Below are positions 8,155 to 37,311 of a stretch of 64,000 nucleotides of DNA, in pieces. Each line of letters starts with the position of its first letter. Position 1 is the stretch's first letter. The DNA is from Anaerolineales bacterium. GTDB lineage: Bacteria > Chloroflexota > Anaerolineae > Anaerolineales > RBG-16-64-43. The notes under the pieces are model-generated. The model saw only the letters and a list, made by a program, of their open reading frames with translations, searched no databases and was not told the origin of the DNA. The stretch lies in assembly GCA_049516595.1 (NCBI GenBank), contig JBEKSY010000006.1, forward strand, positions 66,621-130,620. Reading direction: 5' to 3'. Both the position numbers and the translations under genes were made by a program.

Positions 8155-9258
8155 TTAGGAGGGCGAGATGGTGAAGTACGCGTAGTGATACTGAATCAGG
8201 TTGTCTCGCATGCCCAGGGTGTCGTTCCCGTCCAGTACTCGGCCAGCGATGCTGGTCGCGGTCCAGGTGAAATGCCGCGAATTCCCGTCTCCACTTCGAC
8301 CGGTGATCGCGAACTGGCCGCTGGGCAGCAAGTTGGTCAGAAGATCCTGATACCAGGCGGTTATCGGCGTCGAACCCACGACCGTGCGTGCGGCAGTGAC
8401 CTGAGCCGCATTGCTCTGATAGAGGGCGAGAATGGTCGGGACATCGTGTGAGTTCCAGGCCGCGACCAGACGGTCCACCATGTCGGTGGGGGCGGGTGCC
8501 TGGCCCCACTTGAAGTTCGCCACCGAATTCCACCAGTCGATGTAGGCGGGTTGGGTGGCCCAATCCCAGGCGAAGAAGTTTGCCCCGGTGAGCTTGAGCG
8601 CCACGGCCTCCTGGAGGAATTGGGTGAGCTCGGTTCCCTTCGGCTTCCAGCCGGAAGTCGTGTAGGCAGGTCCGGTCGGAACGACCGGGAGGGAGGGCTT
8701 CAAGGCCTTCAGCTCCTTGACCGACTCCTGCAACTGGTACTGCGGGTTGTGAGCCTGCTCCCAGTAAACCTGGGGCATGTTGAAGTCGCATTTCTCTAGG
8801 AACGCCGTCCAGGGGAAGAGTTGATGATAGTTCGGATAGCGAAAGGAGCTCAGCGCAATGGGAAGGTGGGGAAGACCGGAGCGTAGCTGCTTCATGTACG
8901 TGCGCGCCACCACATCTTTGCCCTTTTTCTCGAACTCCATCTCCGCATCGATCACGTAACCATCCAAACCGAGCTGGAGGGTGCGACTCGCCGCCAGCTT
9001 CGCCTCACCCACTGGATCGTTGCCGTAGATGTAGTGCCAGCCCCAGGGGCTGATGCCTCGGGCCCGGAGCTCGGAGACCACGGGGGGCAACAGGTCATGG
9101 CCCTTCGAGTCGATGTTGAAGGCCCAGGTTCCATCGCCGATCTTGAGGAGAACATGCGACAGCCCGGCTTGGGCGGCACGCGAAGCGATCTTGGCTGCGT
9201 CTCCCTTTTCACAGTTCGGGATCTGCCAGGTGAAGAAACCCTTTCCAACCAGCGCCAT
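8155..9258 (-). CDS. Hypothetical protein: TIM-barrel glycosidase-like N-domain fused to a SnoaL/NTF2-like C-domain
   Basis: The N-part has alternating beta/alpha character (GFFTWQIPN..., HVLLKIGDG, GYVIDAEMEFE, MPQVYWE). The C-part (MVDRLVAAWNSHDVPTILALY...) resembles NTF2-like folds. ATG 9258 is preceded by GCGGAGGAAGGC. The family assignment is pattern recognition only. Confidence 0.6.
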   Translation of the reverse strand: MALVGKGFFTWQIPNCEKGDAAKIASRAAQAGLSHVLLKIGDGTWAFNIDSKGHDLLPPVVSELRARGISPWGWHYIYGNDPVGEAKLAASRTLQLGLDGYVIDAEMEFEKKGKDVVARTYMKQLRSGLPHLPIALSSFRYPNYHQLFPWTAFLEKCDFNMPQVYWEQAHNPQYQLQESVKELKALKPSLPVVPTGPAYTTSGWKPKGTELTQFLQEAVALKLTGANFFAWDWATQPAYIDWWNSVANFKWGQAPAPTDMVDRLVAAWNSHDVPTILALYQSNAAQVTAARTVVGSTPITAWYQDLLTNLLPSGQFAITGRSGDGNSRHFTWTATSIAGRVLDGNDTLGMRDNLIQYHYAYFTISPS

Positions 9259-9359
9259 GCCTTCCTCCGCTGCTTGAGATGAACCCAAGAGGCCCGGGAT
9301 CGAGTTGCGTTGCGGTGCGACCTGCCGGTCTCACCCCCTTTAGGCTCTTGACATTCAAG

Positions 9360-9375
9360 TGCAAATTGCGTGCCA
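9360..9375 (-). promoter_or_regulatory. Sigma-54 (-24/-12) promoter, perfect consensus
   Basis: The minus strand reads TGGCACGCAATTTGCA (TGGCAC-N5-TTGCA). It is intergenic, about 100 nt upstream of ATG 9258, in the correct orientation. Confidence 0.7.
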
Positions 9376-9492
9376 GGTCCTGGTCGGGTTGGGCCTCTCC
9401 GGGGGAACCCAAGATCGAGCAAGCCGCGGGTGTGGAGCGGGGGATGATAGCGGTTTCCCGGCGGTATACTAAGCGTGTCGCCTGGGTCGTCA

Positions 9493-11652
9493 ATGAAACT
9501 GGAAACCCTTCTCGAATCCCTGCCAGATCTTCTTCTCTCGGAGAGGGAGATGATCGAGCGGGCCTACGCGATTGCAGAGCGGGCTCACGAGGGTCAGTAT
9601 CGCGCCTCGGGCGAACCCTATGTGCAGCATTGCCTGGCCGTGGCAAAGATCCTGGCGGATTTTGGGGTTCCAGCGACAACTATTGCTGCCGGTCTGCTGC
9701 ATGACACGGTTGAGGATGGGGGTGTGTCGTTGGGGCAGATCGAGCGCGAGTTTGGGCACGAGGTCGCCCAGCAGGTGGATGGGGTCACCAAGCTTACCAA
9801 TCTGCCCAGGGTTTCAAAGGGAGATGGCCGGCCGGCCGGGGTCGAAGATTCGGCGCGTCGGAAGGACATGGATGTTGAGAGCCTTCGCAAGATCTTCCTT
9901 GCCATGGGAGATGACGTGCGTGTCGTCATCATCAAGCTGGCAGATCGCCTTCATAACATGCGCACGCTCAGCCACCTCGAGCCGGAGCGCAGGCGGCGTA
10001 TTGCTCAGGAGACCCTAGAGATCTTCGCCCCTCTGGCCAACCGACTCGGCATGTGGCAAATGAAATGGGAGCTAGAGGATCTCGCCTTCCGCTACGTCAA
10101 CGCGCAGGTGTACAAGGAGATTGCCGGAAAGCTTGAAGAGCGGAGGACCGACCGCGAGGACAAAATGACGCAAATCGTCCAGCGTCTCAAAGAGGTGCTG
10201 AACGAAGCGGGCTTGTCGGCGGAGGTAAGTGGCCGCCCCAAGCACATTTACTCCATCTATCGCAAGATGCTTCGCAAAGGGGTGGCGTTTGAATCGGTCC
10301 ATGACGTGCGGGCAGTGCGCATCATCGTCAAGGACATCCCCAGTTGCTACGTGACCTTGGGCGTCATTCACAATCACTGGTCCCCCCTGCCTGGCGACTT
10401 CGACGACTACATTGCCTCGCCCAAGGACAACTTCTACCAGTCCTTGCATACTGCGGTGGTTTACGATGATGGAAAGACTATCGAGGTCCAAATCCGCACC
10501 CCGGAGATGCACCAGAACGCGGATCTCGGAATTGCCGCCCATTGGCGATACAAGGAGGGGGGGCGGCGAGACGAAGCCTTCGAGCGCAGAATCCTATGGC
10601 TTCGCAGCCTCATGGATTGGCGCCATGAGGTTCAGGATGCGAGTGAATTCGTCGATGCGCTCAAATCGGATGTCTTCCAGGATCGCGTGTACGCATTCAC
10701 ACCGAAGGGAGATGTGATCGATCTCCCCGCAGGCTCTACGGCCATCGACTTCGCTTACCACGTTCACACTGAAATCGGCCATCGCTGCCGGGGAACCCGG
10801 GTCAACGGCAAGCTCGTTTCCTTGGACTATCGCCTGAGGACGGGGGATCAGGTGGAGATTGTCACAACGCGCCGTGGGGGACCGAGCCGCGATTGGCTCA
10901 ACCCGGATTTGCGGCTCGTGCGCTCGCAACGGGCGATCAGCAAGATCCGACAGTGGTTCAAAAGAGAGGACCAGGACCAACGTATTTCCGAAGGCCGAGA
11001 GATCGTGGAACGCGAATTGCGCAGGCTGGGTGTGGAGGGTCTCACCCTCGAGAGCCTGGGGAAAGGGCTGGGGTATGGCAGCCTGAACGAGTTTCTTGCC
11101 GCGGTCGGCTCCGGCGACCTTACCGCGGCGAGGATCGTGGCGAAGATTCTCGAAACCGAGCCCGGAGCATTGGAAGAATTTCCGGCACTCACCCCTCCCT
11201 CCGAGACAACCACACCGGATGTGAACATTACCGGATTAAGGGGCATGCTGACCTCCATGGCCCGCTGCTGCAAGCCGGTCCCGGGAGACCCGATCGTCGG
11301 GTACGTAACCCGCGGGCGAGGGGCCACCATACACCGCACGGACTGCCCCAACATCCTGCGCGTGCGCGACAAGGAAAGGCTGGTGCACGTTTCCTGGGGG
11401 CGTCCGGCAAGGACCTACCCTGTGGCTGTTCGGGTTACCGCTTACGACCGGGAGGGATTGCTTCGAGATGTGTCCACCGTGGTGGGTGAAGAGCACATCA
11501 ATCTGAGCAATGTGGTCTCCAGCATCAAAGCCCACCTGGCCATGATTGATTTGGTGATGGAGGTCACGGACTTGGGCCAACTAAGCCGGGTACTCAATCG
11601 CGTCGAGGCTCTCCCCAACGTCATGGAAGCTCGGCGAGTGCGGGCTGGATGA
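9493..11652 (+). CDS. relA: Bifunctional (p)ppGpp synthetase/hydrolase RelA/SpoT homologue
   Basis: HD domain (HEGQYRASGEPYVQHCLAVA...LHDTVEDG), synthetase (RPKHIYSIYRKM...QIRT..MH), TGS and ACT regions. A TATACT -10-like hexamer lies at 9465-9470, so I prefer ATG 9493 over the track's GTG 9475. Confidence 0.92.
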   Translation: MKLETLLESLPDLLLSEREMIERAYAIAERAHEGQYRASGEPYVQHCLAVAKILADFGVPATTIAAGLLHDTVEDGGVSLGQIEREFGHEVAQQVDGVTKLTNLPRVSKGDGRPAGVEDSARRKDMDVESLRKIFLAMGDDVRVVIIKLADRLHNMRTLSHLEPERRRRIAQETLEIFAPLANRLGMWQMKWELEDLAFRYVNAQVYKEIAGKLEERRTDREDKMTQIVQRLKEVLNEAGLSAEVSGRPKHIYSIYRKMLRKGVAFESVHDVRAVRIIVKDIPSCYVTLGVIHNHWSPLPGDFDDYIASPKDNFYQSLHTAVVYDDGKTIEVQIRTPEMHQNADLGIAAHWRYKEGGRRDEAFERRILWLRSLMDWRHEVQDASEFVDALKSDVFQDRVYAFTPKGDVIDLPAGSTAIDFAYHVHTEIGHRCRGTRVNGKLVSLDYRLRTGDQVEIVTTRRGGPSRDWLNPDLRLVRSQRAISKIRQWFKREDQDQRISEGREIVERELRRLGVEGLTLESLGKGLGYGSLNEFLAAVGSGDLTAARIVAKILETEPGALEEFPALTPPSETTTPDVNITGLRGMLTSMARCCKPVPGDPIVGYVTRGRGATIHRTDCPNILRVRDKERLVHVSWGRPARTYPVAVRVTAYDREGLLRDVSTVVGEEHINLSNVVSSIKAHLAMIDLVMEVTDLGQLSRVLNRVEALPNVMEARRVRAG

Positions 11653-15086: not shown

Positions 15087-15223
15087 AAGGCGGTCGGGAG
15101 CGCCGGGGACCCTGGGCCTTGGGGCACAATTCTGTGCGCGATCCGGGGTATTGCGGGGGGACCCAGCCGTGGGAAGGCGAGATCGTGCGGCTCAACCAAG
15201 AGGCGAATTGTGCTGGGCAGACA

Positions 15224-16381
15224 ATGCCTGAAACTCGAGGACGCTTGAGGGCGGAGGGCAAGGGAGCCAGACCCGAGTTGCCTATCCAGGCGGCGGACTT
15301 TCTCAAGGCCGCGCTCAAGTCGGAAAGGACCCGGGAAAATTACCGCTGGGCACTCGTCGCGCTGGAGGATTTCGCGGCGCAGACAGGCTATGGGGGGGCA
15401 AGGCTTTCACGACCGCTAGCCCCTGCCGGCATACGCGACGATTTGCTCGTATCCTTTCTCGATTGGCTCCGATCCAATAGAAAGTATTCTCCGGCCACTC
15501 TCGCTTTGTACCTGGCGGCCGTCAAGCGCTACCTCGGATGGTTGTATGCGCGCGGGAAGTTGCCCCCCGCATTTCGGCTGGATAAGGCACGGGAGAAGCT
15601 CAAGGAGGAGACCCGCGGCGGAGCGCTCCGCTACCCTCCCCGTCACCCGGATCCGAGCTTGGCCTCGATCCTTGCTTTCTACGACGAGTCCCCCCTGCCG
15701 CCGGCCCGGAATCCCGCTTCGAAAAGGAAGCGATTGGTCATCCTTCGGAATCGGGCCGTGGTCCACGCGCTTTATTCCTCGGCCGGGCGGGCCAGCGAGG
15801 TCGCACAGCTCGATTGCGCCAGCGTGGACAAGGGCTATGCCACTACCGCCGAGGTGGTCGGGAAGGGCGGAAAGGCGCGGACGCTGATTCTCACCCAGGA
15901 AGCTCAACACGCTATTCGCGAGTACCTTGCCGAGCGAGAGCGCCAAGGCGAGGATTTGGGAGGCAGGCGGATGCGGATAGCTCGGCCCGCTTCCGCTCCC
16001 CTCTTTGTCAGTCATGGCAGAGGGAAGAGGGCCCGCATCTCGCGAACGACGCTCTGGCGGGTTGTCGCGCAGGCAGCCCGTGCCTTGGGACTCAAGCCCG
16101 GCAGCGGTCCCCACGCCTTCCGCCACTTTCGCGCTCAGTCATTGCGGGATGAGGGCATGGACTTGGGTTTGCTGCAAGCCTTGCTCGGTCATTCGAGCAT
16201 CGAGACCACTCGGCGCATTTATGCGCCTCACACCAGCGTGAGCCAGTTGGTCGACGCCCTCTCCACCTACGGGATCTCTGCGGGAGAGGCCGCCCGGAAA
16301 GCCCGAAAAGTCATTCCCGGCGAGCTGCCGGGGGCAGCGACACCTTCTTCCCCATTCAAGACGGGGCGAGGAACTCACTGA
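15224..16381 (+). CDS. Tyrosine site-specific recombinase (phage-integrase family, XerC/D-like with extensions)
   Basis: RNRAVVHALYSSAGRASEV (box I Arg), HAFRHF...LLGHSSIETTRRIY (H-x-x-R ... H ... Y catalytic set), and an N-terminal SAM-like core-binding region. Confidence 0.85.
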   Translation: MPETRGRLRAEGKGARPELPIQAADFLKAALKSERTRENYRWALVALEDFAAQTGYGGARLSRPLAPAGIRDDLLVSFLDWLRSNRKYSPATLALYLAAVKRYLGWLYARGKLPPAFRLDKAREKLKEETRGGALRYPPRHPDPSLASILAFYDESPLPPARNPASKRKRLVILRNRAVVHALYSSAGRASEVAQLDCASVDKGYATTAEVVGKGGKARTLILTQEAQHAIREYLAERERQGEDLGGRRMRIARPASAPLFVSHGRGKRARISRTTLWRVVAQAARALGLKPGSGPHAFRHFRAQSLRDEGMDLGLLQALLGHSSIETTRRIYAPHTSVSQLVDALSTYGISAGEAARKARKVIPGELPGAATPSSPFKTGRGTH

Positions 16382-21747: not shown

Positions 21748-22610
21748 TTAGGTTCTTGGTAGGGGCTCCTGCTTCTTCAGGATCCAAGAAGTCGCCTCCG
21801 AGAGAGACCGGGCCACCGCACCAACTGCGACGGAAGGACCTTTCCTTTTTTGATTCGGTCGTAGAGTCGTGAGACGTGCTGGCGCTTCCAGCCTGCCTTG
21901 GCGCGATTGATAGCAATGATCTTGGCGGCTTCGGCACAGGCCCACTTCGGGTGGTGGTTGGCCCTCCCCGTCTGCCGCCGGGCAGGTTGGCGCACGGGAC
22001 CGTAAGGGATCTTTCCGCCGCCCTGGCCTAACCCTCGGGGCAGGGCGGCCTTCACTTTGGGAGTGATTCCGCCGTTGCCAGCGAGTTTTTCGGCCAACTG
22101 AAAGCGGTCGATCGACCCAACCTCTCGTTTGATGACGGTCGCCGAAATATCGCCCACGCCAGGGAGGGTCTTGAGCAGCGGCATGTTTGGACTGGTCTGG
22201 ATCTGCTGGCGCATGCGACTCTCAAGGGCCTGCATCTGGATGTTGAAGCCGTCCAGGAGTTCGAGCTCCTGCTTGACACAGTTGGACGGATCTGGCGGAA
22301 GGGCCTTGAGTGTGCCCTCGAGAGCCCAATGCGGCCCTTCTTGGAAATGAGATCGGTGACGCCTGTTGGCGAGTGGGCGTATTTGGCTAGGGTGGCATGG
22401 ATCCGGTCCTGGATGGCAGTCCGCATACCCGACAGACCACTCCGGGTCCGAGGTAGTTCTCGTTCGTCCCCCACTGAGCCTGGTGGCAGCCACCCAGCCT
22501 ACCCGCTGGGGCAGGACTTTCCTACAATCCTTCTCGGTGACGCAATTCGTTTGCTTGACAATGACGGTCGGAAAAGATATGATCACCCTCCGAGTTGGAT
22601 CCGCCCGCAG
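21748..22610 (-). pseudogene. IS110-family transposase relic (frameshifted, N-terminally truncated)
   Basis: IS110-type motifs are split over three frames: ERELPRTRSGLSGMRTAIQDRIHATLAKY (ORF 22052-22474), LLKTLPGVGDISATVIKREVGSIDRFQLAEKLAGNGGITPKV (ORF 21777-22694) and SVAVGAVARSLSEATSWILKKQEP (ORF 21748-21945). The DEDD N-domain is largely missing. Confidence 0.75.
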
Positions 22611-22692
22611 CGACCTGCGAGCGAAATGATGGTACAGGAATCCCTCTGAGCCGGTCAAGAGGGTCAAGTTATTTTCGCCAAGGAGACGAACC

Positions 22693-23301
22693 ATGGCACA
22701 CGAACTGCCCGCCCTGCCGTATGCCTATGAGGCGCTGGAGCCATACATCGACGCCCAAACCATGCGGATTCATCACGACATGCATCACAAGGCGTATGTG
22801 GACGGCCTCAACAAGGCCGAGACGATGCTCAAGGACGCCCGCGCCAAGGGCGACTTTGCGCTCGTCAAGCACTGGGAGCGCGAGCTTGCCTTTCACGGAT
22901 CGGGACACTTCCTCCATTCTGCTTTCTGGCAGGTGATGGCCGCAAGCGGGAAGGGGGGTGGCGGCAAGCCGGGGGGTGACCTGCTCAAGGAGGTGGAAGC
23001 GACCTTTGGTTCCTTCGAGGTGTTCAGCAAGCAGTTCAGCGCGGCCGCGGGCGCGGTGGAGGGATCGGGTTGGGCCCTGCTAGTCGTCCAGCCCTCTAAG
23101 AAACACCTGGAGATCTTGACCGCCGAGAAACACCAAAACCTGACCCAGTGGGGAGCGACCCCCATCCTGGTGTTGGACGTCTGGGAACACGCCTACTATC
23201 TCAAGTATCAGAACCGCCGAGGGGACTACGTTCAGGCCTGGTGGAATGTGGTCAACTGGCCCGAGGTGGCTAAGCGCTTCGCGGCGGAGTTCAGCAAGTA
23301 G
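22693..23301 (+). CDS. sodA: Fe/Mn superoxide dismutase
   Basis: LPALPYAYEALEPYIDAQTMRIHHDMHHKAYV ... LVLDVWEHAYYLKYQNRR. Confidence 0.95.
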   Translation: MAHELPALPYAYEALEPYIDAQTMRIHHDMHHKAYVDGLNKAETMLKDARAKGDFALVKHWERELAFHGSGHFLHSAFWQVMAASGKGGGGKPGGDLLKEVEATFGSFEVFSKQFSAAAGAVEGSGWALLVVQPSKKHLEILTAEKHQNLTQWGATPILVLDVWEHAYYLKYQNRRGDYVQAWWNVVNWPEVAKRFAAEFSK

Positions 23302-23401: not shown

Positions 23402-23797
23402 ATGACACACATCATCACTAGTCTCTGCTTGCGCGATGGCAGCTGTGTTGAGGTTTGCCCCGTCGAGTGCATTGTCCCGGGCAAGCCGGGGGACAAGTGG
23501 CCTTGGTTTTACATTGATCCCGACACCTGCATCGACTGCGGGGCCTGCATCCCCGAATGCCCGCTCGAGGCCATCTTCCCTGAAGATGAGGTGCCGGTCG
23601 GGTACAAAGCCAAGGGCGGGGAGCGACTCAGTCGCCCAGAGGGAGGCTCCGCGTTCGAGGGGACCAATCACAACGGAGAGTCGGTGCGCGTCGAACACAC
23701 GGTCGTGCTCAGCGCGGGGCAGGTGGTGGATCTGCGCGCCGACATTGAACCCAACTACAAGTTCTTCAAGGAGGGCCCAGGATACTCGGCCCGCTGA
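23402..23797 (+). CDS. 4Fe-4S ferredoxin-domain protein
   Basis: C..DGSCVEVCP and CIDCGACIPECP cluster motifs. Confidence 0.85.
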   Translation: MTHIITSLCLRDGSCVEVCPVECIVPGKPGDKWPWFYIDPDTCIDCGACIPECPLEAIFPEDEVPVGYKAKGGERLSRPEGGSAFEGTNHNGESVRVEHTVVLSAGQVVDLRADIEPNYKFFKEGPGYSAR

Positions 23798-23813
23798 GGG
23801 ACACGCTTACGAA

Positions 23814-23843
23814 GGCGGGAGCCGAGCTGGCTCCCGCCTTTTT
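23814..23843 (+). terminator. Rho-independent terminator after the ferredoxin gene
   Basis: GGCGGGAGCC-GAGCT-GGCTCCCGCC perfect 10-bp stem followed by TTTTT. Confidence 0.8.
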
Positions 23844-23879
23844 CATCTGGCCGGCTCCGGGGAGGAGAGGAGGGTGCCC

Positions 23880-25313
23880 ATGAATGGTTTTCGAGTGGAA
23901 CGTGACTCCTTGGGAGAGATCCGAGTTCCGGCCCAGGCTTTCTACGGCGCTCAAACGCAGCGGGCCGTGGAGAACTTCCCCATCTCTGGGCTGCGTCCCT
24001 GGCGGGCCTCGATTTGGTCGCTCGGGGTGATCAAGCGGGCTGCGGCGGAAGTGAACCGGGGTCTGGGCCTTCTGGAGCCAAGTAAGTCCGAGGCGATTGT
24101 GCAGGCCGCACAGGAGGTGATGGACGGCCAATGGGATCGCGAGTTTGTCGTCGACCCGTTCCAGGCCGGAGCCGGGACCAGCCATCATATGAATGCCAAT
24201 GAGGTTATCGCCAACCGCGCCACTCAGATCCTCGGCGGTCAGTTGGGCGAATACCGCGTGCACCCGAATGACGACGTCAACATGGCTCAATCCACCAACG
24301 ACGTGATTCCCACTGCCATCCGCCTGGGTTGCCTGTGGCGGCTGGATGAGTTGCTGGGAGGCCTGAAGGAGTTGCATGCCGCCCTCGCTCAAAAGGCTCT
24401 GGATTTTGATGACATCGTGAAGTCCGGACGAACGCACTTGCAAGACGCGGTTCCCGTGCGGTTGGGACAGGAATTCGGGGGATATGCGAGTGCGGTGAAG
24501 CGGGATGCCGAGCGGATCGAGCAGGCGGCGGAGGGCTTGCGAAGGCTTGGCATTGGAGGGACGGCCGTGGGAACTGGGTTGAACGCCCATCCCGATTACC
24601 GCACGCGCATGATTCACAAGCTGAAGGAGTGCAGCCGGCTGCACTTGGTGGCCGCCGATGACCTTTTCGAAGCCATGCAATCCCAGGCCGACGCGGCCCA
24701 CTTTTCGGGCTCGCTTCGCACCCTGGCCCTCACGCTCGTGCGGATTGCGAACGACCTGCGCCTGCTCGCCTCCGGGCCCGCCACGGGATTGGGGGAGATC
24801 GTCTTCCCGGCGGTGCAGCCCGGCTCCTCCATCATGCCGGGCAAGGTGAATCCGGTGATGGCCGAGATGCTCGATCAGGCCATGTACCACGTCTTGGGCT
24901 GCGACACCACGGTGGCGATCGCAAGTCAAGCCGGACAGCTCGAGCTCAACGTGATGATGCCGGTCATTGCCCACAACCTTTTTGAGATGATGCAGGTGAC
25001 GATCGGGGCGGTTGGCGCTTTCACCGAAAGAGGCGTCAAGGGACTGCGGGCCAATCGCGAGCGCGCTGAAGGTTGGCTGGCCCGCAACTCGATTGTCGCC
25101 ACCGCGCTCAACCCGCTGATTGGTTATCTGGCGGCGGCCGAGCTGGTCAAGGCGGCGGAGGCTCAGGGGCTCAGCATCTACGAAATCGCCGTAGCGCAGG
25201 CCGGACAGGGCAAGCTGCGAAACAGGGAGAGCGGGGAAAGCGTGACCGTGCAGGAAGTGGAGAGCGCGTTGGGGAACCTGCGCCGAATGACCGAGGGCGG
25301 CATCCAGGCTTGA
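23880..25313 (+). CDS. Class II fumarate hydratase / aspartate ammonia-lyase family enzyme (AspA-like)
   Basis: RVERDSLGEIRVPAQAFYGAQTQRAVENFPISG, QAGAGTSHHMNANEV, STNDVIPTA, signature GSSIMPGKVNP. The track ORF (23436) fuses it to an upstream out-of-context extension that overlaps the ferredoxin gene. Confidence 0.9.
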   Translation: MNGFRVERDSLGEIRVPAQAFYGAQTQRAVENFPISGLRPWRASIWSLGVIKRAAAEVNRGLGLLEPSKSEAIVQAAQEVMDGQWDREFVVDPFQAGAGTSHHMNANEVIANRATQILGGQLGEYRVHPNDDVNMAQSTNDVIPTAIRLGCLWRLDELLGGLKELHAALAQKALDFDDIVKSGRTHLQDAVPVRLGQEFGGYASAVKRDAERIEQAAEGLRRLGIGGTAVGTGLNAHPDYRTRMIHKLKECSRLHLVAADDLFEAMQSQADAAHFSGSLRTLALTLVRIANDLRLLASGPATGLGEIVFPAVQPGSSIMPGKVNPVMAEMLDQAMYHVLGCDTTVAIASQAGQLELNVMMPVIAHNLFEMMQVTIGAVGAFTERGVKGLRANRERAEGWLARNSIVATALNPLIGYLAAAELVKAAEAQGLSIYEIAVAQAGQGKLRNRESGESVTVQEVESALGNLRRMTEGGIQA

Positions 25314-25327
25314 GACGGCCGAAGACC

Positions 25328-25774
25328 ATGAGGGAAGGGTCCAGCCGACGGAAACTGCGCCTCCAGCTCCGGCATCTGGCCGAGATGCGGCGGGCGGTCA
25401 CGGCCGCGGCACCGGAGGAGGGATGTGGGCTCGTCTTAGGGATCGGCGAGAAAGGGCTCGAGGTCGTCCCTATTGAGAATGTCATCCACAGCCCCACGCG
25501 CTTTCGGCTGGAGGGAGCGGCCCAGGTGAAGGCCATGGTTGGGGCCGCGCAAAGGGGATGGGAGCTGGTCGCGATCTTTCATTCTCACCCCAGCGGACCG
25601 ACTTATCCCTCGCCAACCGACCTGGCGGAGGCGGCCTACCCGGACGCCCTCTATTTGATCTGGGCCCCGGGGCCCACGAAACGGTGGGAATGCCGCGCCT
25701 TCGAGCTGAGGGGAATCTCACTCATGGCGGGGGCGAGCAGCTTTGTACCTGTGGAGGTTGTGAGCGAGGAATAG
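25328..25774 (+). CDS. JAMM/MPN+ (Mov34) metalloprotease-domain protein
   Basis: EGCGLVLG ... AIFHSHPSGPTYPSPTD (JAMM motif H-x-H-x7-S-x2-D). Confidence 0.85.
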   Translation: MREGSSRRKLRLQLRHLAEMRRAVTAAAPEEGCGLVLGIGEKGLEVVPIENVIHSPTRFRLEGAAQVKAMVGAAQRGWELVAIFHSHPSGPTYPSPTDLAEAAYPDALYLIWAPGPTKRWECRAFELRGISLMAGASSFVPVEVVSEE

Positions 25775-25809
25775 GAGCCCGAGGGCTGGAGGGCGCCGTC
25801 GGCCCTTGC

Positions 25810-25971
25810 CTAGAGCCAACTCGCCAGAAGGCCCAGGGCGAATCCCGCGGCCAAAGCGATCCCGGCGGGTCGCAAGTACCTTCGGGCCGAATAGAGCCCC
25901 TTCAGAACCTGCTCCACTGCCATCAACAGGTAGAGCTGGGTCTTCAACCAGGTCAATTCAAAGTTCATCAT
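25810..25971 (-). CDS. Unlisted 53-aa ORF, predicted small membrane protein
   Basis: My own translation: MMNFELTWLKTQLYLLMAVEQVLKGLYSARRYLRPAGIALAAGFALGLLASWL. It is below the track's 60-aa cutoff. TAAGGAG (stop of the upstream ORF plus SD) lies 8 nt before ATGATG. Confidence 0.45.
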   Translation of the reverse strand: MMNFELTWLKTQLYLLMAVEQVLKGLYSARRYLRPAGIALAAGFALGLLASWL

Positions 25972-25983
25972 CTCTCGGGCTCC

Positions 25984-26220
25984 TTACTTGGAAGTGCTGA
26001 TCCTCAGGATCTGACCCCGCTCATCCGCCACAACCCGCACCAAGCGAGGCAGCAGCGCTCCACTATCCGTGCGAACCTTGCCCCGGTAGGTGAGCGCATA
26101 CTGCGTCCGCCCCCCGGCGCCGGACTGGGTGCTGAGGCTGGGATGGACCCCTCGCAGTTCTGGGTATTCCCGGTATACCCGGGCACTAATTCGTTCCACA
26201 AGCTGAGAAGACATGCCCAT
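25984..26220 (-). CDS. Hypothetical 78-aa protein immediately downstream of ftsZ
   Basis: It starts 5 nt after the ftsZ stop and I recognise no family. The protein-like ending (RLVRVVADERGQILRISTSK) suggests a small beta-rich domain. Confidence 0.5.
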   Translation of the reverse strand: MGMSSQLVERISARVYREYPELRGVHPSLSTQSGAGGRTQYALTYRGKVRTDSGALLPRLVRVVADERGQILRISTSK

Positions 26221-26225
26221 GAGAA

Positions 26226-27482
26226 CTAAGCCTTTCCCGTTCGCACCAGGCGGTTACTGCTGGTAGAGGCCAGGGCCTCCTCGAGCCCTCGCCGGCGCCG
26301 GCGGATGAAGGCGGGCACGTCCAGATCTTCTTCGGCCGAAGGGGGCTGGACGCGGTGGGCTGCATGCGCCGCAGAAGCCGGGGTCGTCTCCAGCGATAGC
26401 GCGCGCTCCTCTTCGGGTTTGACCGAGGTAGCTTGCAGGAGGATGTGGGAGGCGCCAGCCAGAACACTCCCCAGCGGCTGCCCACCCACGCCCGTGACCA
26501 CGACAATAGCCTGGACGCGCCCGCTCATGCCCGGATCGATGGCGGCTCCAAACACAACCTCCGCGTCCTTGGCGCCTGCGGCCTGGATCTCCTGCATCGC
26601 CTTGTGCACTTCCATCAGCTCCAGGTCTTCCCCTCCGGTGAAGTGGACCAGGATTCCTGCGGCATGATCCAAGGAGCCAATTTCCAGCATGGGATTGCGC
26701 AGGGCAGACCGGACCGCGGACACGGCTTTGTCCGGCCCGCTGCCCTGACCCACGGCGAAGTAGGCGCCGCCTGCGAGCTGCATTAGCGCTCGCACATGGG
26801 AGAAGTCGACGTTCACGAGTCCCGGGCGAGTGATCAACTCGGTGATGGCCTGCACCCCCTGCCGGAGAACATCGTCGGCCAGCCGCAAGGCGACGTCAAA
26901 GCTGGTCTGCCGCGGGGCCACCGCAAGCAGCCGGTCATTGGGGATCGTGATCAAGGTGTCGCAGTATTCGCGCAGGCGCTCCATGCCCGCTTCCGCAATC
27001 AGGGCCCGTTTGCGTCCCTCGAAGGAAAAGGGCAGGGTGACAATGGCCACAACGATCGCACCCTGCTTGCGCGCGATCTCAGCGGCCACTGGGATGGCGC
27101 CCGTTCCTGTCCCACCGCCCAACCCACAGGTCAGGAACACCATGTCGCCCGGCCCCAGCACCTCCGCCAGCTCCCGCTCGCTCTCGCGGGCGGCCGCCTC
27201 ACCCACATCCGGCATTCCTCCTGCACCCAGGCCCCGGGTCGTATGCGGCCCTAGGGCGACCTTGACTGGCGCCAGGCAGGTGGCCAGGGCCTGTTGGTCT
27301 GTGTTGCATGCAATGAACTCGACGCCACCCAATCCGAGCTCAATCATTCGGTTGACTGCGTTGGACCCTCCGCCGCCCAGGCCAACCACCTTAAGCACCG
27401 TGACCCCGGGCGCCAAAGCCTTCTCGGGCCGGGTTGGGCTCAAGCTGAAGTCCTGGGGTTTCCCCAAGAATGCGTTCGTCAC
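26226..27482 (-). CDS. ftsZ: Cell division GTPase FtsZ
   Basis: KVVGLGGGGSNAVNRM, tubulin signature GLGGGTGTGAIPV, NTDQQAL, C-terminal peptide DLDVPAFIRRR. The GTG at 27482 (V16 of the track ORF) is preceded by GAGAGGAG and overlaps the upstream stop codon (GTGA). Confidence 0.95.
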   Translation of the reverse strand: MTNAFLGKPQDFSLSPTRPEKALAPGVTVLKVVGLGGGGSNAVNRMIELGLGGVEFIACNTDQQALATCLAPVKVALGPHTTRGLGAGGMPDVGEAAARESERELAEVLGPGDMVFLTCGLGGGTGTGAIPVAAEIARKQGAIVVAIVTLPFSFEGRKRALIAEAGMERLREYCDTLITIPNDRLLAVAPRQTSFDVALRLADDVLRQGVQAITELITRPGLVNVDFSHVRALMQLAGGAYFAVGQGSGPDKAVSAVRSALRNPMLEIGSLDHAAGILVHFTGGEDLELMEVHKAMQEIQAAGAKDAEVVFGAAIDPGMSGRVQAIVVVTGVGGQPLGSVLAGASHILLQATSVKPEEERALSLETTPASAAHAAHRVQPPSAEEDLDVPAFIRRRRRGLEEALASTSSNRLVRTGKA

Positions 27483-28744
27483 AGAGCACTCCTCTCGCCC
27501 ACCGATCTCAGCGGCTCGACAAGGCATCCGGCTGTCTGGAGACGCTCAACGAGGTCCATCGGCGGTTCGTCGCCCAGGACCGTCACCCGCTCGGCCTGCA
27601 TGGCCTCCTCAACCGAATATCCGCAAGTCGGCCGGTAAGTGCGCAGGTAGTCTTGAATGGTCTGCCAGGCTCCCTGAGCTAGCTCCTCGGCCTCAGGGGG
27701 GATCAGGAAGTAATGTTCGAAGCGCTTGCCAGCCGGATCTGGCCCCGGAGGGGTCGTCTGGCTCTGCAGCCGCTTCAGTCCATCCACCACGGGCAAGCTG
27801 GTCCCATCCGACCGGTACCAGGCCTGGTCGGCGAAGGGGCTGGCCTCTTCCGTCGCGAGCAACCAGAAGGTCACATTCTGCAGCCAAAATGGAAGCCTCC
27901 CCATGCGGGCCTGCCGGGCGATCTGAAGATTGATCTCTGAGTGGCGCTCCGGATCGGCCGGAGGAAAGTTGGGGTCGATGCGGCTGTGGAGCACGGCTCC
28001 CCCGCGAACCATCACGATCGGTCGCGGCTCGCCCAGGTGGCTCTGGACGATTTCCTCGACCCACTGGAAACCAAAGAAGCCCCGATGGTCTTCGCTTCCC
28101 GGCGGGGTAAGGTAGGGGCGAGCCTCCGGCCAGCGTTCGCACCCGCCGCGACCCCAATCCCAAGGGCGGTTGTAGGCCCAGGCGTCGACCGCGAACTCCA
28201 TGCTCGAGAGCAGCTCGGCCTTCCCGCGGCGCTCGATGGAGGTCAGGGCCGCATCGAGGAACGACAGATCCCAGTAGTCTCCTCCCGGGTAGAGCGGAGG
28301 GAACAGAGGAATCAGCCCTTCCTCCTGTTCCATTTCCGCAATCGGAAGAAAGACATCGAGGAATTGCTCGACGGGAGAGGCCTGCGACCACTGGCCCGGT
28401 CGCCAGGATTCTTGCTGGTTGGGAGCCGAGAATAGGGCCAAGTAGCGTGCTCCCCAACCCGCGTAGCTGCGGAAGAGCAGCCGCAATTCGGGGCCCAGGG
28501 GGCGAATGGGGCTTTCAGGGAGGTGCAGGATGGGTTGGATCCCGGATTCTCGGAGGGCGCAGATGAAGCTTTCAGGAATGGCTCGCGCGAGACCGGAGCG
28601 AAGGGTCAGCCACCCGAGTTCGAGAGCCTGGAACTCGGGCAGCCAGCGTGCAAGATCCTTGGTTGTGTAATGCAGGTCGTCCGGGTAGTAATGAAGCCCC
28701 AGGCGTGTTCGCTCGGCGGTAATGGCAGCGTTCATCGGCGTCAC
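27479..28744 (-). CDS. Hypothetical 421-aa protein, translationally coupled to ftsZ
   Basis: I recognise no family. Trp/Pro-rich, possibly TIM-barrel-like, with no obvious signal peptide or TM segment. The start is GTG 28744 or ATG 28735. Confidence 0.7.
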   Translation of the reverse strand: MTPMNAAITAERTRLGLHYYPDDLHYTTKDLARWLPEFQALELGWLTLRSGLARAIPESFICALRESGIQPILHLPESPIRPLGPELRLLFRSYAGWGARYLALFSAPNQQESWRPGQWSQASPVEQFLDVFLPIAEMEQEEGLIPLFPPLYPGGDYWDLSFLDAALTSIERRGKAELLSSMEFAVDAWAYNRPWDWGRGGCERWPEARPYLTPPGSEDHRGFFGFQWVEEIVQSHLGEPRPIVMVRGGAVLHSRIDPNFPPADPERHSEINLQIARQARMGRLPFWLQNVTFWLLATEEASPFADQAWYRSDGTSLPVVDGLKRLQSQTTPPGPDPAGKRFEHYFLIPPEAEELAQGAWQTIQDYLRTYRPTCGYSVEEAMQAERVTVLGDEPPMDLVERLQTAGCLVEPLRSVGERSAL

Positions 28745-28759
28745 CCCGTGGATGAACGT

Positions 28760-28775
28760 TGCAAGGCCTGTGCCA
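28760..28775 (-). promoter_or_regulatory. Sigma-54 (-24/-12) promoter, perfect consensus
   Basis: The minus strand reads TGGCACAGGCCTTGCA inside the 41-nt gap between the 940-aa gene and the 421-aa/ftsZ pair. Confidence 0.7.
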
Positions 28776-28785
28776 ACCGCCTTGG

Positions 28786-31608
28786 CTATCGGGAGACTGC
28801 CAACTTGATCAGATGGCCTGCTGCGTCAAGGCTCAGCCTTGCGAATTGAGCGTGGCCCGGGCCGTGGCCTTCGATTCGCTTGTCGAGCAAGATAACCCAA
28901 GCCGGAAGACCGCCAGCCGAGCTGGCTACCGCAGGATCCTTGGGGATGGCTGGATCTCGGCGAGGCACGATCTGGGGTTCAAACACCCGTGCCCGGCTGC
29001 CTGTCATGCCCGGCAGGCTGGCCTTGAGGACTTCCTTGAGAGAGTTCTCCAGATCGGCCGGCAGGGTTGCCAAAGAAGTGTCGTCCAGCGCCTTGACCGC
29101 GAGTAGGTCCAGGTCGGCCGGACGCGATTCGCGACGCAAGGCGCTCTTGGTGCCCGTCCCCTGAGCGAATTCCCGAGGCACAAAGAACGGATCGCCAAGG
29201 TGGATGAAAGAGATCAGCGTCTTCTGGTCTTCCCCATCGAGGTATCCTTGACGCCGTCGCATTTCCTCGGCAAAGGTCAGCTTCGCTTGCCTGAGTGCCT
29301 CGCCGGAGGGAAGGCCTCGAGTCAGGCTCTGCCAGTAGTGGAGGGCCACAAGATCTGCTCCAATGAGCGGAGGAGCGGCCGCCCCATAGGCGATCTTGGT
29401 AGAACCCACCAGGGCCCGTGTCCCTGATTCCAAGAACTTCAAGGCGAGTGCGGAATCAATCGTCTTGCTCAACACGTTCGCGCCATAACAGGCCTCGCTG
29501 AAGACTACAGTCGGGGCCCGGCCTGAGTTGGTCACCTGCGCAGGTCGCAAAGCCGTTGGAAACTCGACCGCGGACGAAGCGGATCCGGGCGAACGTTGAC
29601 CGTACCACTCTGGCGCATCCTCCAAGCCGTGCAGATTGAAGTAGGAGTACCGAGGGAAGGCCAAGTCCGCCGCCGGAAGTGTGTCGGCATCCGTGGGAGG
29701 CGAGATCAACATCGAATTGGACTGGCCAATCGGTCGGTATGCCCCCAGGGAGGCAGAGTGCCAGATGCTGGCCGTATACCCCAGACTCTTCCGAAAGCGC
29801 TTCACCCTCGGATGAAGGAGCAGCCTGATCCACCCGTACAATCGAGCCAGTGGGGTCGGCGCTTTCGCGGGAGCCTCGTCAATGATTCTCTGGATGGCCT
29901 TCAGGAGAAACTGGGGGTCATTGCCGGTTGGGTTGGGGATACGGCTCACCGGCCATTCCGGCACGTAGTAATTCTCGTCCCGGGTTGCGTAGGGATTGTC
30001 AGAAGGAACATCGTGATCGTCGTCGTCGGCGGGATTCGGAAGCCGGTGAAATGGAATGATGTCATGCCCACCGATAATGAGCAAGGCACCAATCATCTCG
30101 CCGCGCCGCGCCAGGGCGGCGTCCAGTTGACAGACCAGGCGCTTCACGTCGGCAGCATTGGAAGCCGGCACGCTCTCCAGTTGGAAGGGGCTCAGGGTTT
30201 CCGCGTCATCGGCGTAGATGGCATAGGCCGACCAGCCCTTGCGGGCGTGCTGGGAGCGAACCAGGGAGGTGAGGGATTGACAAATCGCCGCGGTCGCGCT
30301 CAGCCCATATTGGCTCTGCAGGTTCGCGAGACTCGAGAGTACGACCAAGCTGGGCCGCCTTCGGTCTTCGTCCGCCGGCTTCTTGCGCATGTGCAGCCTT
30401 CGCGCCACCCGGTCCAATTCCGCCCGAACCCGCATGAGGTCCTCGTCCTCTTGTGGTTGACCTTGTGAATCGGCTGGTTGGGTGGAGCCCGAGGGGGCCG
30501 TCCCGTGGGTTGCCTGGGGCGCGCCTGGGTTGGGGGGCAGCGCTCCTGAAGGTCCTTGGAAGTGTTCCCCGGGCAATGGACGGATTTCGACGGGCGTCTC
30601 GTCCGAGACGGGAACAGGAATCGAGGCCTCTGCCGGCGCTGGGACCGGGGGTGAGGTCAGCCCCCCGGATGGACCGCGGAAGTGCTCCCCCGGCAGCGGA
30701 CGAATTTCTGCGCCCGCCTCGTCGACCAGGAGGCTCGTGGGTGGGCCCACGGCCTCCGACCCAGGGATAGGAGACGGGTCCAGGTTGGGCGTCTCTATGA
30801 ATTCGTCCGCGCCTCGCGCCGCCGGGGTTGCCCCAGACAACTTGTTCAATCCCGCGGCGAACGCTACCGCCGTGGGAATGGACAAACGAATGTCCGCTTT
30901 GAGGTCAGCTGGCCAAAGGGCAAGATAGGGGTTGAAGGCCCCCAGCATACGTGCGCCCACCTCATGGGCGGGGTCGGCAACGGCCGCCAGGTGGAGAAGT
31001 TCCACAGCCTGGGTGGTCTTCCCGGTGGCCAGGGAGGCTTGCGCCAAGGCCAGCAAGATCGCCGGGCAGCCCGGCCAACGCTGGCGAGAGGCTCCCCCCA
31101 GGCACAGGACCGCCTCGTAATCGCCAGCCAACCATGCAACCTTCAGCTGGGCCCAGGCGGGAAGCAAAGAGTCGGGCCTTGCCCGTTCGACCTCCTCCAA
31201 CATCCGTTGCGCCTCGGCGTAATTGTGAGCATGGATCTGTGCCAATCCCTGACGCAGCAGCTCGGCCCAGGCAGGCAGGGGGAGGGGTGACGAAATCGGG
31301 TCGGTTGAAAGTGAGGAAACGAACCCCAGCGAGTCGCGCGCGGCCTCTTCCTGACCCAGGGCGCTCTGGATATCGCTGGCGGTCCGGTAGAAGGCAACCT
31401 CCTCGGGATCCGCGACCTGGGCGATCTCAATGTGCCTGGACGCGGCTCCCAGGTCGTGCAATTGCTGGTAGGCCTGGGCCAGGAAATACCGTATGCGGAA
31501 GTCGCCTGGCCATTGTCCCAGCCAGCTCCGCGAGGCATCGCGCGCGAAGGCCGAGGCGCGCACGGTGAGGGCCGCATCCGCAAGGTTAAGCAGGGTCTTT
31601 CGATCCAC
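28786..31608 (-). CDS. TPR / Pro-rich repeat / gingipain-like (peptidase C25-like, clan CD) putative cysteine peptidase
   Basis: The N-terminal ~250 aa are TPR-like helices. The C-domain has LLIIGGHDIIPF...SDNPYA...VSRIP, His-Gly (FNLHGLED, H660) and Ala-Cys (VVFSEACYG, C707) 47 residues apart, as in clan CD. No signal peptide. GTG start is 3 nt after the upstream stop, with a GAGGTGA SD. Confidence 0.8.
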   Translation of the reverse strand: MDRKTLLNLADAALTVRASAFARDASRSWLGQWPGDFRIRYFLAQAYQQLHDLGAASRHIEIAQVADPEEVAFYRTASDIQSALGQEEAARDSLGFVSSLSTDPISSPLPLPAWAELLRQGLAQIHAHNYAEAQRMLEEVERARPDSLLPAWAQLKVAWLAGDYEAVLCLGGASRQRWPGCPAILLALAQASLATGKTTQAVELLHLAAVADPAHEVGARMLGAFNPYLALWPADLKADIRLSIPTAVAFAAGLNKLSGATPAARGADEFIETPNLDPSPIPGSEAVGPPTSLLVDEAGAEIRPLPGEHFRGPSGGLTSPPVPAPAEASIPVPVSDETPVEIRPLPGEHFQGPSGALPPNPGAPQATHGTAPSGSTQPADSQGQPQEDEDLMRVRAELDRVARRLHMRKKPADEDRRRPSLVVLSSLANLQSQYGLSATAAICQSLTSLVRSQHARKGWSAYAIYADDAETLSPFQLESVPASNAADVKRLVCQLDAALARRGEMIGALLIIGGHDIIPFHRLPNPADDDDHDVPSDNPYATRDENYYVPEWPVSRIPNPTGNDPQFLLKAIQRIIDEAPAKAPTPLARLYGWIRLLLHPRVKRFRKSLGYTASIWHSASLGAYRPIGQSNSMLISPPTDADTLPAADLAFPRYSYFNLHGLEDAPEWYGQRSPGSASSAVEFPTALRPAQVTNSGRAPTVVFSEACYGANVLSKTIDSALALKFLESGTRALVGSTKIAYGAAAPPLIGADLVALHYWQSLTRGLPSGEALRQAKLTFAEEMRRRQGYLDGEDQKTLISFIHLGDPFFVPREFAQGTGTKSALRRESRPADLDLLAVKALDDTSLATLPADLENSLKEVLKASLPGMTGSRARVFEPQIVPRRDPAIPKDPAVASSAGGLPAWVILLDKRIEGHGPGHAQFARLSLDAAGHLIKLAVSR

Positions 31609-37295: not shown

Positions 37296-37311
37296 TGCAA
37301 GGGGCGTGCCA
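37296..37311 (-). promoter_or_regulatory. Sigma-54 (-24/-12) promoter, perfect consensus
   Basis: The minus strand reads TGGCACGCCCCTTGCA, 43 nt upstream of ATG 37253 and just downstream of the activator gene's terminator. Confidence 0.75.

Follow-up and report, generated by a model that had tools for sequence, protein, structure and literature searches.

The division gene ftsZ is the textbook case of a gene that is transcribed constitutively and controlled post-translationally, and promoters of the alternative sigma factor sigma-54 are silent without an ATP-driven activator. Why, then, should ftsZ of an Anaerolineales bacterium (Chloroflexota) lie behind a perfect sigma-54 promoter motif? 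The question is raised by a 64 kb stretch of a metagenome-assembled genome (MAG) with 63% GC (GenBank assembly GCA_049516595.1, contig JBEKSY010000006.1, positions 66,621 to 130,620), which we call the window and in which positions are counted from the first letter. Read on the minus strand, a promoter motif, P1, is followed by an uncharacterised gene, x421, and then by ftsZ. We report that ftsZ is likely to stand behind sigma-54 promoters that are conserved among relatives, and that P1, x421 and ftsZ form the 3' end of a row of roughly 16 kb, all on the same strand, which we take in all likelihood to be a sigma-54-dependent cell-division module. Division in these bacteria would then probably be switched on by a signal and not depend on constitutive expression. 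The locus seems to combine two known kinds of system, a sigma-54 regulon and an ftsZ operon, in a new way and together with an uncharacterised protein family. A full-text search of incomplete coverage turned up no paper that connects sigma-54 with an ftsZ promoter or treats the gene surroundings of ftsZ in Anaerolineae, and a search of the literature on the dcw cluster (genes of division and the cell wall), FtsA and SepF in Chloroflexi gave nothing specific.

Sigma-54 promoter motifs upstream of ftsZ

An earlier, sequence-only reading of the window had placed a perfect sigma-54 motif in the 41-nt gap between the stop codon of a 940-aa open reading frame (ORF; TAG, 28786-28788) and GTG 28744, and the motif is indeed there, at 28775-28760 (TGGCACAGGCCTTGCA; Table 1). 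P1 has the correct orientation and lies a short distance from the gene start: measured from the final base of TTGCA, GTG 28744 begins at 16 nt and ATG 28735 at 25 nt, leaving 24 nt between TTGCA and the ATG, and GGGGTGA precedes this ATG, all in agreement with that reading. The window has three perfect matches to the strict motif TGGCAC-N5-TTGCW, each of them on the minus strand, where 0.02 would be expected, and none of 100 shuffles of the window reached three; the match at P1 is more than chance. Compared with the related loci L001 and L002, its GG and TTGCA boxes are kept and its spacer varies. A simple consensus scan of 25800-29200, which is weak evidence, found no sigma-70-consensus promoter, either ahead of x421 or within it, where the sequence-only reading had proposed to look for a second promoter. 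Terminators occur in the same interval at chance level only, and none falls in the 41-nt gap.

That reading had also taken x421 to be a 421-aa gene starting at GTG 28744. The real start is ATG 28735, which gives 418 residues, because L002, a relative with an 80%-identical x421, loses the GTG yet keeps the ATG and its Shine-Dalgarno (SD) sequence, and because Met4 is nearly invariant and the closest homologues are 418 aa long. At the other end of the gene, the stop codon TGA (27481-27479) overlaps the GTG of ftsZ (27482-27480) as GTGA, with GAGAGGAG 6 nt upstream of the GTG, as had been deduced earlier by frame arithmetic. An RTGA overlap with a GGAG SD is common to the window, L001, L002 (as ATGA) and L081, over x421 identities of 52-96%, and by these signals x421 and ftsZ would be a translationally coupled pair.

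Relatives of x421 were sought by scanning one genome per GTDB species, which yielded 459 genomes. The comparative counts given here refer to the best 80 x421 loci of relatives among them, at 96-37% identity; the record closest to the window is JBEKHT010000088 (96% identity). As the idea of a lineage-specific FtsZ partner implies, x421 is linked to ftsZ in these relatives: 74 of the 80 loci have ftsZ downstream of x421 on the same strand, 72 of them as its direct neighbour, a linkage that holds down to about 38% identity. Six loci lack ftsZ; five of these are contigs that end just after x421, and L037 is a true exception. The distance between the two genes is 3.1 kb in L029.

The relaxed motif [TC]GG[CT]A[CT]-N5-[TC]TGC[AT] has 155 matches in the 80 loci and 12-17 (about 14) in first-order Markov randomisations, an excess of about 10-fold; the gene strand carries 145 of these matches. 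The ten on the opposite strand precede nothing and are therefore at chance level. The gene-strand matches fall at recurrent positions. P1, just upstream of x421, is found in 55 of the 80 loci, and a second site, P2, just upstream of ftsZ, in 48 (within L016-L080), where it mostly lies 21-45 nt ahead of the stop codon of x421; a third site has a fixed position within x421 in one subclade (13 loci). Altogether at least one sigma-54 motif lies upstream of ftsZ in 75 loci. The distance from TTGCA to the start codon is typically 23-48 nt for P1, which is typical of promoters, and 24-92 nt for P2. Ten other gene-strand matches stand before the gene for a tetratricopeptide repeat (TPR) protein with tentative similarity to C25 peptidases (the TPR/C25-like gene) and three before rpoN, the gene for sigma-54. 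The regulatory and genomic arrangement is thus a real one, conserved across the class.

Constraint at the DNA level is seen at P2, which overlaps the x421 codons for D-G-T/M-x-I/L-A. When loci were picked by this peptide alone and their codons tallied afterwards, Ala was encoded by GCA in 47 of 49 (background 18%), Gly by GGC in 44 (background 43%) and Ile/Leu/Val by NTT in 48. Because the synonymous sites are frozen, selection at P2 acts on the DNA and not only on the protein, and P2 would be a clean natural case of a promoter kept within coding sequence by synonymous-site selection. The D-G-T-x-I/L-A peptide is missing from lineages without P2, the window included. The gap between x421 and ftsZ follows the same division: it is mostly +3 to +110 nt in loci with P2, and -8, -4, +1 or +2 nt in those with P1 only (the window, L001, L002, L039, L045, L055, L057, L066, L067, L073 and L075). 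It therefore seems that ftsZ either has a sigma-54 promoter of its own or, standing behind P1, depends on tight coupling with x421.

Two further arrangements were observed. L003-L015, L019 and L020 have neither P1 nor P2; here a sigma-54-like motif, CGGCAC-N5-TTGCA, occurs at a fixed position, +759 to +813 from the start of x421 homology, covering codons for I-A-R-H-A-S-C, and most members of this L003-L020 subclade carry a second motif upstream of the TPR/C25-like gene. L026 has the full order P1, x421, P2, ftsZ and is labelled Candidatus Aquidulcis, class Ca. Limnocylindria according to NCBI; on this label, which for a MAG can be imprecise, the arrangement may extend beyond Anaerolineae.

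The machinery that such promoters need is encoded in cis. In the window the row reads rpoN, a sensor histidine kinase with a PAS domain, a sigma-54 activator (bacterial enhancer-binding protein, bEBP), a sigma-54 promoter motif, a small transmembrane (TM) protein, two TPR proteins (TPR1750 and TPR940), P1, x421, ftsZ and a 78-aa gene, so that the rpoN-kinase-activator cassette is 8.6-13 kb upstream of P1 on the same strand. Counted in a 6-kb flank upstream of x421, an rpoN homologue is present in 23 of the 80 loci, and also in L082; the orthologous kinase in 27, plus L082; and orthologues of the activator in 27, plus L081 and L082. The cassette lies in this flank in 23-27 loci, and it also occurs in L081 and L082. 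In the window the activator ATG overlaps the kinase stop codon by one base. Its Sigma54_activat domain (PF00158; E 3.6e-66) spans residues 144-308, and the protein ends about 15 residues past the lid with no HTH_8 by Pfam. Because it has no helix-turn-helix domain, it falls in the subclass lacking a DNA-binding domain (DBD), together with FlgR and CtcC, DBD-less activators that are known to have small regulons (PMC3162934). With motifs in 75 of 80 loci, rpoN, kinase and activator in cis and synonymous constraint at P2, the earlier suggestion that part of ftsZ expression depends on sigma-54 is strongly supported and was, if anything, understated.

The cassette itself carries sigma-54 motifs in some lineages. 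A motif stands directly before rpoN in L082 (position 3741), and L056, L059 and L070 have one before genes clustered as rpoN, about 5 kb upstream of x421, which suggests positive autoregulation of rpoN in some lineages. The rpoN of the window is not preceded by such a motif.

It could be objected that TGGCAC-N5-TTGCA is a chance match or a non-promoter element, since P1 is a single 16-nt motif in a genome of 63% GC. Against this stand the number of perfect matches in the window, the strand- and position-specific excess over Markov controls, the frozen synonymous sites at P2 and the presence of rpoN and activator alongside, and we find the objection scarcely credible. A different view is that the sigma-54 promoters are real yet modulatory, basal expression of ftsZ coming from an unrecognised housekeeping promoter in x421 or further upstream. 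It would be unusual for an essential gene to stay silent unless an activator is at work, promoter positions shift among subclades (P1, P2, inside x421, far upstream), and the sigma-70 scan is just a consensus test; however, that scan returned no sigma-70-like site, a sigma-54 motif is almost always kept upstream of ftsZ, and loci without P2 compensate by gene overlap and not by a promoter-sized intergenic region, which makes a purely modulatory role rather unlikely in our view. Nor do we expect, except as a very slim prospect, that this ftsZ is an accessory paralogue serving a specialised process, with the main ftsZ in a normal dcw cluster elsewhere. The unusual partners (the giant TPR protein and a TPR protein resembling clan-CD peptidases) would fit such a paralogue, and the survey of division genes covers the window and related loci; but the product scores 370.2 bits against the FtsZ equivalog TIGR00065 (cut-off 295.2) and has canonical GTP-binding (GGGTGTG) and T7 motifs and the C-terminal peptide DLDVPAFIRRR, a motif also found in FtsZ of L085 and L087. 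It is moreover 96% and, in L002, 87% identical to the downstream gene of related loci (median 53%), and evolves more slowly than x421 (80% in L002, median about 40%), which fits a bona fide division FtsZ, and the row of L087 includes mraZ, with which dcw clusters begin.

Several observations nevertheless weigh against a conserved sigma-54-dependent module. The relaxed motif is absent from L010, L014, L029, L037 and L043, and the x421 homologues of L083, L088 and L037 are not next to ftsZ; neither are the distant homologues P0050, which lies beside che genes, and P0048. L081, a relative with 52% identity, has no P1 and only a far-upstream motif; with this and the site within x421 of the L003-L020 subclade, promoter position must be called fluid. 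In the activator, the GAFTGA loop reads GAFTDA (GAFTSA in the relative L016), so that the fifth residue is changed and the Phe and Thr, reported to be the critical residues (PMC3162934), are kept. The sigma-70 scan, being a crude consensus test, is compatible with an internal constitutive promoter. The evidence is sequence comparison of MAGs alone, and the survey of division genes covers the window and related loci, so that a second ftsZ, ftsA, sepF or other activators might lie elsewhere in the genome.

The x421 protein

What, then, is the protein that takes the place before ftsZ? The sequence-only reading had described it as rich in Trp and Pro, of no recognised family and without a TM segment or signal peptide, and this description stands: x421 contains 9.6% Pro and 3.6% Trp, has no match in Pfam or NCBIfam (even at E<=5) or in a sequence profile search of the Protein Data Bank (PDB), and shows no TM segment (highest 19-residue hydropathy 0.95) and no signal peptide. 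N-terminal extensions in some homologues were considered as signal peptides and rejected, as they look like mis-called starts. The family is large, with 1417 representatives at 50% identity at E<=1e-3 and 414 at 1e-30, all labelled hypothetical. No ftsA, ftsQ or mur gene was found by Pfam among the window ORFs scanned, and no SepF, ZapA or FtsA in the remaining small ORFs; likewise, tblastn with Escherichia coli FtsA and FtsQ (E<=1e-3) had no match in the window or in 85 related loci, and E. coli FtsZ found 78. The earlier statement that ftsA and dcw genes are missing here therefore holds within this scope.

Profile searches thus gave no family, and structure prediction gave a fold. The AlphaFold2 (AF2) model (pLDDT 90) has a (beta/alpha)8 barrel of glycosidase type at residues ~15-330, followed by an alpha/beta domain of 80 residues. 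Foldseek places PslG/GH39 first (E 6e-9, TM 0.50), then GH2, GH10 and GH1. Asn109 after strand 4 is invariant and position 110, where clan GH-A enzymes have the acid/base Glu, is variable (L/T/S/Q/C); strand 243-249 ends at G249, which is near-invariant, only 5 of 46 sequences have Glu at 247, and no nucleophile Glu was found after strand 7. Judged on the model, the barrel has lost both canonical catalytic glutamates. The conserved positions (D22, H74, N109, W114, D156-Y-W-D159, W197, W205, D219, W228 and W294) are predicted from secondary structure to lie at strand ends and in the loops that follow, the usual ligand face of a TIM barrel; the barrel would thus retain a face of conserved, largely aromatic residues at the C-terminal ends of its strands. 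For the C-terminal domain, modelled separately (AF2, pLDDT 83), the flavodoxin-, TIR- and BRCT-like Foldseek matches were generic (E>0.01), and no fold was assigned from them.

The surroundings of distant relatives also touch on the cell wall. In L085 the order is Amidase_2, ftsZ, 78-aa gene, three LysM genes, SpoIID fusion and LytR_cpsA_psr. In L087, whose x421 is 33% identical, a sigma-54 motif is followed by genes for a REC-domain protein, a small TM protein, a 2182-aa protein, the TPR/C25-like protein and x421, and then by a coiled-coil gene, mraZ, Amidase_2, ftsZ, a 77-aa gene and a barrel/SpoIID fusion. Barrels of the x421 type are fused to SpoIID in P0155 (L085 8001-11123), P0192 (L084 89-2707) and L087 (16651-19827); these have neither the C-terminal domain nor a signal peptide, and P0192 also has CarboxypepD_reg. 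The tail of P0193, which by eye had suggested a GH25 muramidase, was dropped for want of Pfam support. The contexts of L085 and L087 and the SpoIID fusions thus appear to connect the barrel with functions related to peptidoglycan. Signal peptides are, however, clear in the LysM and amidase neighbours and missing from the x421 family, and x421 is probably cytoplasmic.

On the model and these contexts, the most likely role of x421 is to bind or process a glycan related to the cell wall, or to act with FtsZ as a non-catalytic division factor. The former would make it an active or glycan-binding wall factor, acting on peptidoglycan precursors, turnover products or another glycan and co-regulated with ftsZ without touching FtsZ, a role that a glycosidase-type barrel makes possible and that we hold tentatively. 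The resemblance to PslG and other clan GH-A enzymes, the strand-end positions rich in Trp, Tyr and Asp, the barrel-SpoIID fusions and the amidase, LysM, SpoIID-fusion and LytR_cpsA_psr genes near ftsZ in L085 and L087 agree with it, but neither canonical catalytic Glu position is conserved and x421 resembles no Pfam, NCBIfam or PDB entry in sequence. Because the family also lacks a signal peptide, unlike its LysM and amidase neighbours, a classical extracellular wall hydrolase is unlikely. The other possibility, to which we give less than even odds by a good distance and which we regard as unlikely, is that x421 is a direct structural partner of FtsZ (a tether adaptor, bundler or modulator), that is, a pseudo-enzyme standing in the place of FtsA and FtsQ and binding the FtsZ core or DLDVPAFIRRR. 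Here the adjacency to ftsZ in 72-74 of 80 loci, a coupling that implies linked stoichiometry, the loss of the GH-A glutamates and a location in the FtsZ compartment all point the same way; no locus has ftsA or ftsQ within 6-10 kb of ftsZ, and a canonical FtsZ C-terminal peptide must have some partner. Yet the conserved aromatic and acidic positions resemble a ligand site more than a protein-protein interface in the model, the SpoIID fusions of barrel-only homologues (SpoIID being peptidoglycan-cleaving) suggest a glycan ligand, three genes (coiled-coil, mraZ, amidase) separate x421 from ftsZ in L087, and the C-terminal domain has no informative structural neighbour. In particular, x421 has no membrane-binding segment and so would be no anchor on its own. 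Of the lineage-specific FtsZ partner proposed by the sequence-only reading, either anchor or modulator, what stands is the conserved linkage.

Possible mechanism and known systems

If ftsZ is governed by sigma-54 as we propose, sigma-54 RNA polymerase would bind the -24/-12 element of P1 and stay closed until, upon a signal, the PAS kinase phosphorylates the REC domain of the activator. As the activator has no DNA-binding domain, it would act from solution, as FlgR and CtcC do, and open the complex with ATP. The predicted transcript would begin near 28749 and have a short leader, about 14 nt long, in which GGGGTGA may serve as the SD of ATG 28735. Ribosomes that finish x421 at its TGA could then re-initiate at the overlapping GTG 27482, aided by GAGAGGAG, and x421 and FtsZ would therefore be made from one message in a linked ratio. 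Since the 41-nt gap holds no terminator, read-through from the upstream promoter motif (37311-37296) probably adds to the expression of both genes.

This scheme resembles FlgS/FlgR-RpoN of Helicobacter pylori and CtcB/CtcC-sigma-54 of Chlamydia, in which a REC-AAA+ activator without HTH_8 has a two-component kinase as its partner, promoters are of the -24/-12 type (TGGCAC-N5-TTGC), and the activator presumably serves all sigma-54 promoters from solution. It differs from them in that the targets, known here from sequence alone, are ftsZ and its conserved neighbours and not flagellar or late-developmental genes, that rpoN, kinase and activator share a gene row with these targets, and that P2 of the relatives is embedded in coding sequence.

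The ftsZ end of the row likewise invites comparison with the dcw unit. As in ftsQ-ftsA-ftsZ of E. coli (locus L086), ftsZ is distal in a co-directional row and would be co-transcribed with the gene before it. In E. coli, ftsZ has several housekeeping and stationary-phase promoters inside ftsQ and ftsA. Here, unlike in the dcw unit, the preceding gene encodes a protein of GH-A fold and not FtsA or FtsQ, ftsA, ftsQ and mur genes are missing within 6-10 kb, and the promoters are of sigma-54 type. Pairs of ftsA and ftsZ are found in Dehalococcoidia and Chloroflexus (PMC10608941).

For the protein itself, the nearest structural likeness is to PslG of clan GH-A (GH39; PDB 5bx9 and 4zn2), with which x421 shares the (beta/alpha)8 barrel, its Asn109 corresponding to the Asn of the 'NEP' motif; it has no detectable sequence similarity to PslG, lacks the acid/base Glu, the nucleophile Glu and a signal peptide, and carries the extra 80-aa alpha/beta domain. 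FzlA of Caulobacter is a pseudo-enzyme of glutathione-S-transferase fold for which FtsZ binding has been demonstrated. It could serve as a functional analogy for x421 as an FtsZ partner, both being enzyme folds without catalytic residues that are associated with FtsZ in one lineage; the folds are unrelated, however, and for x421 the association is known from gene linkage.

What would follow from a sigma-54-dependent ftsZ? The supply of the Z-ring, and hence septation, would be signal-dependent in a large, environmentally dominant and mostly uncultured filamentous group, and RpoN may be essential in organisms that carry the module. A survey of sigma-54 reports the factor from just a part of the Chloroflexi and saw cell-division genes enriched neither near sigma-54 nor near its activators or promoters (PMC3162934); an ftsZ behind sigma-54 would widen the known scope of this factor beyond that survey. 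Candidate components of the Chloroflexota divisome would be x421, the 78-aa protein and the TPR/peptidase-like protein. A bolder version, which we regard as distinctly improbable, holds that septation in Anaerolineae, perhaps also in neighbouring Chloroflexota classes, is gated by a sigma-54/two-component checkpoint, with partners of FtsA/FtsQ type replaced by a lineage-specific set (x421, the 78-aa protein, the TPR protein resembling clan-CD peptidases and the giant TPR scaffold) that binds or processes FtsZ. Were it true, it would amount to signal-triggered division in filamentous, multicellular Chloroflexota, undescribed in any model bacterium.

Gene row and neighbouring features

The coordinates of the row and of the perfect motifs are collected in Table 1.

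Table 1. Genes and sequence signals of the sigma-54/ftsZ row and the perfect sigma-54 motifs of the window
Feature	Position	Strand	Description
rpoN (sigma-54), 524 aa	40585..42159	-	Pfam Sigma54_AID, Sigma54_CBD and Sigma54_DBD, all over cut-off
PAS sensor histidine kinase, 649 aa	38614..40563	-	Pfam PAS_9, HisKA, HATPase_c
Sigma-54 activator (bEBP), 406 aa	37394..38614	-	Pfam Response_reg, Sigma54_activat, AAA_lid_14
Putative sigma-54 promoter TGGCACGCCCCTTGCA	37296..37311	-	perfect consensus; 42 nt upstream of ATG 37253; heads the small TM/TPR1750/TPR940 row
Small two-TM protein, 112 aa	36915..37253	-	similar to 108-aa cluster-6 proteins of 25 loci
Giant TPR protein (TPR1750), 1750 aa	31612..36864	-	multiple TPR Pfam families
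TPR940 protein, 940 aa	28786..31608	-	TPR_19 at residues 160-215
Putative sigma-54 promoter P1 TGGCACAGGCCTTGCA	28760..28775	-	GG-N10-GC; perfect TGGCAC-N5-TTGCW match
x421, 418 aa	27479..28735	-	predicted GH-A-like TIM barrel and small alpha/beta C-terminal domain; uncharacterised
Putative translational-coupling junction	27479..27496	-	SD GAGAGGAG, 6-nt spacer, GTGA
ftsZ, 418 aa from GTG 27482	26226..27482	-	Pfam Tubulin (PF00091) and FtsZ_C (PF12327)
78-aa conserved protein	25984..26220	-	ORF immediately 3' of ftsZ
Third perfect sigma-54 motif TGGCACGCAATTTGCA	9360-9375	-	71 nt upstream of a 377-aa gene, 8155-9288 (-)

Upstream of P1, the motif that heads the small TM/TPR1750/TPR940 row has equivalents in L081 (position 1555, before a 113-aa gene) and L087 (position 361). 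The small two-TM protein that follows it has no Pfam match and also resembles the products of the 108-aa gene of L087 and the 113-aa gene of L081; the 152-aa ORF listed for it over-extends upstream across the promoter motif. The giant TPR protein has an orthologue of 1748 aa in L081.

Upstream of x421, 55 of the 80 loci keep the C-terminal half of TPR940 (aa ~385-940). In the window this half (28786-30450) shows FNLHG and SEACYG motifs, which recall the His/Cys dyad of clan-CD peptidases of gingipain/caspase type. Weak or faint precomputed Peptidase_C25 matches exist in the TPR940 homologues of L081 (8573-9946), L082 and L087 (7715-9994), and hmmscan for Peptidase_C25 was negative for the TPR940 of the window. 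We tentatively regard the domain as clan-CD-peptidase-like; if so, a cytoplasmic TPR-protease would be encoded directly upstream of x421 and ftsZ.

On the other side of ftsZ, the 78-aa protein has no Pfam match, and homologues of 73-84 aa are encoded after ftsZ in 23 clustered loci as well as in L081, L085 and L087. The gene keeps this place also where x421 is no direct neighbour of ftsZ. A stretch of roughly 20 residues, R-x-V-R-V-x-x-D-x-x-G-x-I-L-K-x-x-x-S-[KR]-stop, ends both the 78-aa and the TPR/C25-like proteins (window 25984-26220 and 28786-28850; L087 15954-16187 and 7715-9994; L085 3530-3766). This motif, present in three divergent lineages, was recognised only by eye, and a BLASTP comparison of the 78-aa protein with the tail of TPR940 was negative.

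The third perfect motif of the window, TGGCACGCAATTTGCA, sits in the intergenic region common to the 377-aa gene and a divergent relA/spoT gene (9475-11652). The 377-aa protein has no signal peptide and carries a C-terminal SnoaL-like domain; hhalign shows no relation to x421, and its candidacy as a relative was ruled out. Apart from ftsZ, just one gene of division type was seen in the window, a 143-aa ORF at 45774-46205 (-) with a sub-threshold DivIC/FtsB match (E 2.5e-5, 24.4 bits, cut-off 28.9).

Past ftsZ, an ORF with a Prok-JAB (MPN-type) domain, 25073-25774 (+), converges on the end of the row, and JAB and fumarase neighbours are also present in L081. The listed fumarase ORF, 23436-25313 (+), has an N-terminal extension of ~150 aa rich in Arg, Ser and Pro that looks like an over-extended call. 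A fragment of an IS110-family transposase (Transposase_20, weak match) lies a few kb past the row at 21777-22694 (-), and so does, at 15119-16381 (+), a gene for a tyrosine recombinase (Phage_integrase, SAM-like N-terminal domain) that is syntenic in L081.

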